A DNA stretch of 64,000 bases from Escherichia phage ES12. Shown piece after piece: positions 6,378 through 7,844 of this stretch (the stretch's first letter is position 1; every line of letters starts with the position of its first letter). A program made the position numbers and the translations under genes. Location: sequence record MN508614.1; one strand, written 5' to 3'. The notes under the pieces were generated by a model. That model was not told the origin of the DNA. It ran no database searches and worked only from the letters and a program-made list of their open reading frames with translations.

Positions 6378-6514
6378 AGTTTTGTGAAAAAATTTTTAAA
6401 AAGTTTTGGGGAATTCTAGGGCAGGGAGTGGAAATCAAAGGATAGGATAATATATTATAAAGGATAGAAACTAAATGATGCCTAGAGAGGCCCGGAAAGG
6501 CCTAGATACCAAAA

Positions 6515-6538
6515 AGCCCCGACCAAAAGGTTGGGGCT
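6515..6538 (-). terminator. Rho-independent terminator (minus strand)
   Basis: agccccaacc-uuuu-ggucggggcu hairpin followed by UUUUUGG on the minus strand, just after the stop at 6546. Confidence 0.6.
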
Positions 6539-6545
6539 AAGAATG

Positions 6546-7019
6546 TTATTTGATTTGTTTAGCAGACCAAATGCGGTCTTTAATAATTTTTTGGATGTCT
6601 TCAACATACTCTAGGTCATGAGCATGTGGATTATCTTTGAAACTATAAGCACGGGCTAACTTTTGGCCTTCGGTTTTGATTACTAAAAGCTCTTTAAGGA
6701 TAGCTTCATATTTAGCGATAATTCCTTTAACGATATTTTTTTCTTGTGCCGCTTTAGGATCTGCTTTAGGAGCAGGTTTACCAGAAGCCTTTGCAAAAGC
6801 AGCGCCAGTAGCAACTAAACTTTTCCAGGCCATACTAACTGCATTTCCCGTAAATCCTTCCGCTTTCATGTCGCGTGCAAACTGGAATCGTGATTCATCA
6901 GAAGCATCTTTATAGGAATATTTACCCGCGGCAATGGCAGCTTTTGCAACAGCTTGAATTTCGGTGCTAGATGCTTCATTTAACACCGCTTCATTTAAAA
7001 ATTGAGTATATGATTTCAT
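6546..7019 (-). CDS. Internal-protein-like protein with CTS-like N-terminus MKSYTQFLNEA; Ala/Lys-rich
   Basis: Internal ATG at 7019 with AGGAAA RBS; the ORF-track N-terminal extension to 7196 crosses a terminator and structured RNA region and is rejected. Confidence 0.65.
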   Translation of the reverse strand: MKSYTQFLNEAVLNEASSTEIQAVAKAAIAAGKYSYKDASDESRFQFARDMKAEGFTGNAVSMAWKSLVATGAAFAKASGKPAPKADPKAAQEKNIVKGIIAKYEAILKELLVIKTEGQKLARAYSFKDNPHAHDLEYVEDIQKIIKDRIWSAKQIK

Positions 7020-7057
7020 CTTATTTCCTGTTTTAATTTGTAGATTTAATATACTAA

Positions 7058-7065
7058 TATTTATA
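7058..7065 (-). promoter_or_regulatory. T4-type late promoter box TATAAATA upstream of the 6546..7019 gene
   Basis: Reverse complement of plus tatttata, about 39 nt upstream of the ATG. Confidence 0.45.
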
Positions 7066-7071
7066 CCAAAA

Positions 7072-7095
7072 AGCCCCAACCTTTCGGTCGGGGCT
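7072..7095 (-). terminator. Rho-independent terminator (minus strand); inverted copy of the 6515..6538 hairpin
   Basis: agccccgacc-gaaa-gguuggggcu followed by UUUUUGG on minus strand. Confidence 0.6.
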
Positions 7096-7099
7096 AAGC

Positions 7100-7401
7100 C
7101 TTGCGGCAACCTTGTCGGGGTTCCACCTGCTAAGGCAAGTGTTTGTACGAAACGCCGGGATTCGAACCCGGTTATTAAGTAGTTGACGCTACTCAATATT
7201 TTTAAAAGGCCATATCTCGACCATATCCGAACGTTCCGTCAAAAACGCTACTCGGCTTACGGCAAAGATATTTCCTCGAATCGATAATTCGGTGCGCCGT
7301 TTCAGCTGTGATAGTAAAGAACCAGAACATAGTAAAACTGTGGGAGGAACTATACTCCAGGGAACATCAGTCCGACGACTTACCGGTAGCGACCCGGTTT
7401 C
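7100..7401 (-). ncRNA. Candidate stable structured RNA(s) downstream of the tRNA cluster, with a tRNA-like T-arm
   Basis: No credible ORF; T-arm-like ccgggttcgaatcccgg plus a 7-bp acceptor-like pairing; sits between tRNA cluster and a terminator. Confidence 0.3.
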
Positions 7402-7752
7402 TTAATATTCTTTTAAAGCATCAATCTGTTCACGGCGTTTACGCCATAAATCAATTGCTTCATACGCAGATTCAGCATTTCGAATTGGACGGCATTTATA
7501 TAAAGACTTGTGATTTTGATATTGCGTAGATAACGGAATTTTATCTAAAAGGTCTTTATGTTCAAAGTATTCATAACCATCTAAGCCAAATGAACGATTT
7601 TTAAGAAATTGCCAATGACCGTATTCGTTTTCGACATAAACATAATCTGCGTGCTGATAAAGCAAATTAATTACACGTTCAGAAATAACAGTGTCATTAT
7701 GATTAAAATAGAATGTTAAATCATGAACTACTAAATAAACATTACCTTTCAT
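7402..7752 (-). CDS. Hypothetical protein
   Basis: 116-aa ORF, GAGGAA RBS, start 17 nt downstream of tRNA-Arg 3' end. Confidence 0.55.
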   Translation of the reverse strand: MKGNVYLVVHDLTFYFNHNDTVISERVINLLYQHADYVYVENEYGHWQFLKNRSFGLDGYEYFEHKDLLDKIPLSTQYQNHKSLYKCRPIRNAESAYEAIDLWRKRREQIDALKEY

Positions 7753-7768
7753 ATTTTCCTCACTTAAT

Positions 7769-7844
7769 TGGTCGAGGCAGTAGGGATCGAACCTACGACC
7801 TAGGACTTAGAAGGTCCTTGCTCTTCCTTCTGAGCTATGCCTCG
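7769..7844 (-). tRNA. tRNA-Arg (anticodon UCU)
   Basis: Hand-folded cloverleaf: acceptor CGAGGCA/UGCCUCG, anticodon loop CUUCUAA, T-loop GGTTCGATCC, CCA encoded. Confidence 0.85.

Follow-up and report, generated by a model that had tools for sequence, protein, structure and literature searches.

What is encoded by the roughly 300 nucleotides at positions 7100-7401 of the window (the whole stretch of 64,000 nucleotides from Escherichia phage ES12 that was analysed) is the question raised by this locus. An initial annotation, made from the letters of the DNA, had described them as one structured region without a credible open reading frame (ORF), lying downstream of a tRNA-Arg gene, between the gene at 7402..7752 and a terminator, and had offered two explanations: a stable small RNA like the species 1 and 2 RNAs of phage T4, or a degenerate tRNA. 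Comparison with T4 and with homologues from related phages points to two RNA genes, which are most probably the orthologues of T4 rnaD and rnaC, and yields a structural model for the latter.

The tRNA operon and its neighbourhood

The source of the window is a T2/T4-like phage. Positions 7040-7460 showed 100% identity to Escherichia phage ES26, and 809 phage records, nearly all of them T-even-like, matched. ARAGORN and Rfam placed nine tRNA genes on the minus strand, from 8522 to 7769, in the order Leu, Gly, Pro, Ser, Thr, Met, Tyr, Asn and Arg. This set, with Asn and Tyr and without segB, resembles the arrangement given for T2L and RB3 (PMC2330249). 3' of tRNA-Arg, the minus strand carries, in this order, a 116-aa ORF, rnaD, rnaC, a trailer, a terminator and a 158-aa ORF:

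7844..7769, minus strand: tRNA-Arg (ARAGORN)
7752..7402, minus strand: 116-aa ORF (phrog_3355), inserted exactly between tRNA-Arg and rnaD
7291..7406, minus strand: very probable orthologue of rnaD (species 2 RNA), 116 nt, from alignment to T4 rnaD, ends transferred from the T4 annotation
7146..7284, minus strand: very probable orthologue of rnaC (species 1 RNA), 139 nt, from alignment to T4 rnaC, ends transferred from the T4 annotation
7100..7145, minus strand: 3' trailer of about 45 nt with three small hairpins, conserved with T4
7072..7095, minus strand: intrinsic terminator (10-bp stem, GAAA loop, U tract), which would end the tRNA/rnaD/rnaC unit
7065..7058, minus strand: late-promoter-like motif TATAAATA, preceding the 158-aa ORF
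7022..6546, minus strand: 158-aa ORF (phrog_2280), starting at ATG 7022; T4 has no such ORF

The three landmarks by which the interval had been placed, i.e. the upstream tRNA-Arg, the neighbouring gene and the terminator, were thus all recovered at these positions. The region 7060..7150 folds with a z-score of -4.09, and the trailer is presumably removed during maturation.

The same arrangement, with an ORF between tRNA-Arg and rnaD, occurs in Lutter and WFbE185. Judged by size and position, similar ORFs follow tRNA-Arg in Lutter, TG1 and WFbE185, and in a Karamvirus locus (L004) a gene annotated as phrog_3355 borders the tRNA array. For the 116-aa and 158-aa ORFs, only PHROG families of unknown function were found, with no match in Pfam or NCBIfam and no significant match in the PDB (the sole PDB match, of the 158-aa ORF, had E = 0.38). 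The 158-aa ORF is flanked by two copies of a 36-nt terminator hairpin (6506-6541 and 7063-7098), which are 83% identical and whose stem changes are compensated. The region of this ORF has the look of a cassette, flanked by promoter and terminator, that was inserted downstream of the tRNA operon.

Orthology with the T4 species 1 and species 2 RNA genes

In the T4 reference (NC_000866), rnaD (71053..71171) and rnaC (70908..71046) are annotated directly 3' of tRNA-Arg. The alignment with the T4 stable RNA genes, which the initial annotation had proposed as a check, showed that the minus strand of the window can be aligned with this segment base for base, and rnaC differs from T4 rnaC by one mismatch in 139 nt over its whole length. 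When each RNA was used alone in BLAST searches, about 745 records were obtained for each (747 phage records for rnaC), some of them annotated as rnaC or rnaD; these labels are carried by T4, RB3, RB55, RB68 and ATK47. The site agrees as well: rnaC forms the distal part of the tRNA operon, shares its strand and has the operon terminator behind it. Like T4 rnaC (species 1 RNA, T4s001), it follows rnaD and precedes the trailer and terminator, and it shows no material difference from it, its ends being transferred from T4 and its stability being predicted from there.

The best explanation of these observations, with a probability of about 0.9, is that 7406..7291 is the orthologue of T4 rnaD and 7284..7146 that of T4 rnaC, both on the minus strand. 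Since the interval would then correspond directly to both T4 genes, the first explanation of the initial annotation is correct in its strongest sense. An RNA region had been recognised rightly; it consists of two RNAs instead of one, and it extends from 7143 to 7406, slightly past 7401. The feature is therefore an already known one, namely the species 1 and 2 RNA genes, and ordinary for a T-even phage. These genes have been known in T4 since the 1970s.

Homologues of rnaC and rnaD are often annotated as a CDS for a 'hypothetical protein', including a ribosome-binding site, such as CPT_Marfa_145 of Klebsiella phage Marfa (positions 599-742 of locus L030), and odd tRNA labels on rnaC homologues also occur, as tRNA-OTHER in the genome G9062. 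The comparison corrects this common mis-annotation of the interval as a 'hypothetical protein' or pseudo-tRNA.

Secondary structure of rnaC

The window rnaC has a minimum free energy of -50.2 kcal/mol (z = -4.56). For comparison, 23 distinct homologues from about eight Tevenvirinae-like genera were used, and an earlier set comprised 18 distinct sequences. RNAalifold predicted 42 pairs from the 18 sequences, 23 of them with compensatory change. The consensus fold was scored on two alignments:

MAFFT alignment, 18 sequences: 97.2% of cells paired; 23 of 46 pairs compensatory; 0 of 500 shuffles as good; slid controls 37-48%
Covariance-model alignment, 23 sequences: 97.6% of cells paired; 28 of 46 pairs compensatory; 0 of 500 shuffles as good; slid controls 37-48%

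The covariance model (R1) gave a single match in the window, at 7143..7285 with 170 bits, and one strong match per locus across the loci, while genuine tRNAs reached only 12-22 bits. A covariance-model search had likewise been suggested by the initial annotation; Rfam contributed no family at gathering score. The covariation shows rnaC to be a tRNA-shaped RNA, in which an acceptor-like stem, a T arm, a 10-bp hairpin and a long arm meet in a four-way junction:

7277..7283, minus strand: 5' strand of the acceptor-like stem (CGAUUCG), pairing with 7154..7148, with a tandem U.U interior
7148..7154, minus strand: 3' strand of the acceptor-like stem (CGUUUCG), pairing with 7283..7277
7210..7273, minus strand: irregular long arm of 64 nt in the position of the D arm, closed by an AGG/CCU helix and ending in the hexaloop UUGACG
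7237..7242, minus strand: hexaloop 1 (UUGACG), complementary to hexaloop 2
7173..7198, minus strand: 10-bp hairpin in the position of the anticodon/variable arm; 8 of 10 pairs with compensatory change
7183..7188, minus strand: hexaloop 2 (CGUCAA), the apex of the 10-bp hairpin
7155..7171, minus strand: T arm (CCGGG stem strand, UUCGAAU loop, CCCGG stem strand); 100% paired, 2 of 5 pairs covarying (G-C in 12, U-A in 9)
7143..7147, minus strand: conserved tail U-A-C-A-A (U-N-CAA in all homologues)

In the acceptor-like stem, conservation of the flanking pairs is 100%, one pair alternates between A-U (12 of the 23 homologues) and G-C (11), and the U.U/U.U interior is replaced by U-A/C-G in Yersinia phage TG1. 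The stem runs without a spacer into the 3-bp AGG/CCU helix (7276..7274 with 7209..7207). Helices 3-6 of the long arm show compensatory change in 16 of 18 pairs. 3' of this arm follow a conserved A/U-rich linker, the 10-bp hairpin, one A and the T arm, which is contiguous with the 3' strand of the acceptor-like stem and confirms the canonical T arm noticed earlier. An invariant unpaired GG lies 5' of the CCU strand, where the GG of a D loop would be expected.

The acceptor pairing that the initial annotation had considered, cggaacg (7238..7232) with cgtttcg (7154..7148), can be formed in this phage and is rejected by the comparison: compensatory changes are absent, 9 of the 23 sequences mispair at one position, and on these homologues 500 of 500 shuffles scored as well. 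The true partner of the cgtttcg strand is the 5'-terminal CGAUUCG, and cggaacg forms the 3' side of the hairpin at the apex of the long arm. A second alternative, a 7-nt complementarity between GAUUCGA in the 5' strand (7277-7283) and UCGAAUC in the T loop (7160-7166), was set aside because TG1 loses it while its acceptor stem becomes fully Watson-Crick.

The 3' tail reads UACAA here, UCCAA in Marfa and UUCAA in TG1. Such a U-N-CAA tail is one base off the N-CCA of tRNAs, and the T4 annotation lets the mature RNA stop just 5' of the CAA. It was also observed that the T arm (7155-7171) holds GGTTCGAATCC, which fits GGTTCRANTCC, the reported core of the sites of the homing endonuclease SegB in tRNA genes of T-even phages (PMC2330249).

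Proposed pairing of the two hexaloops

Hexaloops 1 and 2 are perfectly complementary in all 23 rnaC sequences. The sole substitutions in these loops are compensated in both cases, UUGAUG/CAUCAA in TG1 and UUGGCG/CGCCAA in Marfa, and represent two independent double changes; the pair closing hexaloop 1 also covaries (U.G, U-A, A-U and G-C). The alignment was unbiased towards a loop-loop helix because the covariance model did not include that helix. The two compensatory events are suggestive of a kissing interaction of the hexaloops, which might be formed within one molecule or between two molecules as a head-to-tail dimer. Against an intramolecular contact speaks the length of the long arm (about 27 stacked layers), which could touch the 10-bp hairpin only by bending sharply.

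HIV TAR-TAR* and ColE1 RNA I-RNA II form fully paired hexaloop kissing complexes, and the hexaloops of rnaC are likewise a fully complementary pair of hairpin loops. The difference is that in rnaC both loops reside in one RNA species and that the complex is predicted from the sequence.

Comparison of rnaC with tRNA and tRNA-like RNAs

ARAGORN called no tRNA or tmRNA in the interval. Rfam found no family at gathering score there, and a permissive E-value gave chance-level matches only for 6900..7800; within the tRNA clan, the best match on rnaC was tRNA-Sec with 17 bits in comparison to a threshold of 47. These results agree with the earlier statement that a standard anticodon arm is missing. 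In place of an anticodon arm of 5 bp and 7 nt, rnaC has the 10-bp hairpin, whose 6-nt loop CGUCAA is paired with the other hexaloop in the proposed fold. It also encodes no CCA (the tail being U-A-CAA), and U-C-CAA is encoded only by Marfa.

With canonical tRNA (RF00005), rnaC shares a terminal stem of seven layers continued directly by a T stem of 5 bp whose loop is UUCGAAU, an unpaired GG beside a D-stem-like helix, and a gene embedded in tRNA arrays. The T arm, with 5 bp and a 7-nt UUCRANY loop contiguous with the 3' strand of the acceptor, is that of a tRNA. rnaC differs from tRNA in its length of 139-146 nt, in the tandem U.U in the acceptor stem and in the 64-nt arm that replaces the D arm.

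Other RNAs combine such elements as well. tmRNA and the bacterial Y RNA YrlA carry tRNA-like domains or modules, and like rnaC they join an acceptor/T-arm mimic to non-tRNA helices and are non-decoding. In contrast to tmRNA, rnaC has no tag ORF, pseudoknot ring, G3.U70 or CCA, and no tmRNA is called by ARAGORN or Rfam; in contrast to YrlA, its acceptor stem is built from the 5' and 3' ends of the RNA itself. No sequence relation of rnaC to tmRNA or Y RNAs was detected in the Rfam search.

Distribution of rnaC

rnaC occurs as one conserved unit of 142-146 nt in about eight Tevenvirinae-like genera. Divergent copies with 60-90% identity were found in Karamvirus, Kagamiyamavirus (EcS1), Moonvirus (KM16, NM4.3), Tegunavirus (TG1), Gelderlandvirus (CF-SP2), Marfavirus (Marfa), Mosigvirus and uncultivated contigs. 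Outside of Tequatrovirus and Mosigvirus, where rnaC ends the operon, most copies stand within a tRNA array or next to one, with no rnaD. In Karamvirus, Moonvirus, Gelderlandvirus and Kagamiyamavirus it has a tRNA gene on either side, each only a few nucleotides away, and such array-internal copies are typically found 5-6 nt 3' of tRNA-Trp and a few nucleotides 5' of tRNA-Gly. In TG1, a CDS is located 5' of rnaC and a tRNA directly 3', and in Marfa and contig L015 no tRNA directly adjoins it. rnaC, and not rnaD, is therefore the widely conserved unit.

An rnaC pattern run against 185,579 bacterial and archaeal genomes matched nowhere, i.e. no host copy was found. Two IMG/VR candidates (L034, L039) that appeared with a looser pattern of kissing loops and T arm were discarded as chance matches, having neither a covariance-model match nor a tRNA.

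Properties of rnaD

In the set of homologues, rnaD was found only in loci of Tequatrovirus and Mosigvirus. About 50 nt at its 5' end and about 25 nt at its 3' end are near-invariant, and the middle splits into at least four types; the central 55 nt or so of the window rnaD belong to another sequence type than those of T4 rnaD and are flanked by covarying stem pairs. The consensus fold begins with a hairpin of 5 bp and a 7-nt loop, closed by A-U or G-C. In the long irregular stem that comes next, the conserved 5' segment is joined to the 3' one, and the stem closes the variable apical hairpin. In this fold, 97.9% of cells are paired, covariation is limited to 4 pairs and the basal stems do not vary; the folding energy of the window rnaD was no better than that of shuffles (z = +0.21). 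It is plausible that rnaD would fold as a separate rod-like RNA with a 5' hairpin and a long stem. The best duplex between rnaD and rnaC was likewise no better than shuffles.

T4 rnaD (species 2 RNA, T4s002) shares with the window rnaD the conserved 5' and 3' segments and the site directly upstream of rnaC. T4 rnaD abuts tRNA-Arg, whereas in the window the 116-aa ORF lies between the two, so that the 5' end of rnaD would have to be formed otherwise than by 3' processing of tRNA-Arg as in T4. Since the T4-defined start overlaps the TAA stop codon (7404..7402) of this ORF, the 5' end of rnaD is uncertain here. The abutment of tRNA-Arg and rnaD belongs to the T4 locus and is no trait of the RNA itself. 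The 3' ends differ too, being CACCA in T4 and CACCG in the window.

A convergent SNP in rnaD was reported for a T4-like phage adapting to the semi-permissive host ECOR34 (PMC12685909), which is a suggestive hint that the locus affects host-specific fitness.

Processing and possible function

In T4, the tRNA cluster is transcribed as a precursor of about 1.75 kb with eight tRNAs and both species RNAs (I and II), and the transcript ends 3' of the species I gene (PMC2330249). T4 RNAC, a discrete stable RNA of about 140 nt that accumulates late, was detected by northern blot (PMC9697503). The homology together with this literature shows that in the window, too, rnaD and rnaC should be co-transcribed with the nine upstream tRNA genes in a unit ending at 7095..7072, and that both should be cut from the tRNA precursor as stable RNAs. 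The minihelix of acceptor-like stem and T arm would make rnaC a substrate of the tRNA-processing machinery. RNase P would cut its 5' end, and the 3' end might be formed by endo- or exonucleolytic trimming at the conserved U-N-CAA tail, two steps that partly follow what the literature of the 1970s-80s reportedly described for RNase P and the 3' processing of the species RNAs. The closed fold could account for the stability of rnaC.

The roles of the T4 species RNAs are stated to be unknown (PMC3014915, PMC9697503, PMC12685909), and a literature search for a function or a published comparative structure of rnaC or rnaD yielded only such statements. Since rnaC has no CCA and no free anticodon-like loop, and since its conserved loops are occupied, the role that suggests itself most readily is that of a non-chargeable tRNA mimic. 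As such, it is predicted, tentatively, to bind or titrate a tRNA-recognising protein, which might be an enzyme of processing or modification or a defence nuclease directed at tRNAs.

Four other explanations were weighed. That rnaC and rnaD are cis-acting parts of the tRNA precursor, which guide ordered processing or shield its 3' end and accumulate as by-products, seems unlikely. Their position in Tequatrovirus, at the 3' end of the operon and just 5' of the trailer hairpins and terminator, would agree with it, as would the direct neighbourhood of rnaC to tRNAs in other genera. In most other genera, however, rnaC is array-internal or has tRNA genes 3' of it and therefore gives no 3'-end protection there; rnaD is missing from those arrays, and a 140-nt fold with invariant, mutually pairing loops goes far beyond the needs of a spacer.

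A function of rnaC, rnaD or both as trans-acting regulators that base-pair with phage or host transcripts is slightly more doubtful still. These RNAs are abundant late in infection (PMC9697503), rnaD resembles some sRNAs in having a variable middle between conserved ends, rnaC offers a conserved single-stranded linker rich in A/U, and the convergent rnaD SNP arose during host adaptation (PMC12685909). On the other hand, the conserved loops of rnaC are complementary and covary, so that little free conserved sequence remains for targets, and rnaD and rnaC form no duplex better than shuffles. No target is known, and according to reviews no trans-acting sRNA has been characterised in T4 (PMC3014915). 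A base-pairing role for rnaC is thus less likely than that of a tRNA mimic.

It is very improbable that rnaC is a decayed tRNA pseudogene, i.e. a functionless relic in the tRNA cluster. The canonical T arm and the acceptor-like stem would fit such an origin, as would the weak tRNA-Sec match and the pseudo-tRNA calls of 95-96 nt inside some homologues (tRNA-OTHER in G9062; tRNA-Met(cat) or tRNA-Phe(gaa) in L019 and L033). In these homologues, ARAGORN-type software builds a pseudo-cloverleaf of the cggaacg/cgtttcg type, and the anticodons assigned differ between them. A length kept at 142-146 nt over about eight genera does not agree with decay, nor do the 28 of 46 compensatory pairs, many of them in parts without a tRNA counterpart, the invariant junction and loop sequences, and the accumulation of T4 rnaC as a stable RNA (PMC9697503). 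Because the non-tRNA parts covary across genera and the assigned anticodons differ, the degenerate tRNA that the initial annotation had offered as its second explanation is not supported.

A protein-coding interval can practically be dismissed: the earlier statement that no credible ORF is present was borne out, with only ORFs of 24-42 aa inside the interval, and although such ORFs exist mechanically and many GenBank records place a 'hypothetical protein' over the homologous stretch, the 216-aa ORF (7196..6546) has its TTG start within rnaC and continues across the trailer and terminator into the 158-aa gene, the ATG 7022 form of which is covered by the phrog_2280 alignment from its residue 2 onwards, the RNA region is present in T4 without this gene, and rnaC homologues differ by paired, compensatory substitutions and by indels of 1-4 nt, not in multiples of three.

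For the tRNA mimic, a broader picture may be drawn, and it is offered with even more reserve than the mimicry itself. rnaC would stand for a conserved family: T-even-like phages of enterobacteria would carry compact tRNA mimics within their tRNA arrays, each locked by the kissing loops and acting as a decoy for, or titrating, a host factor that recognises tRNAs, which may aid host range; rnaD would be a lineage-specific companion that affects host-specific fitness. The function of the species 1 and 2 RNAs has been an open question for about fifty years, and the covarying hexaloops of rnaC and its conservation across tRNA arrays are useful for addressing it. The comparative model of rnaC, with its helices, invariant junction and covarying loops and with TG1 and Marfa as natural variants, provides handles for experiments.
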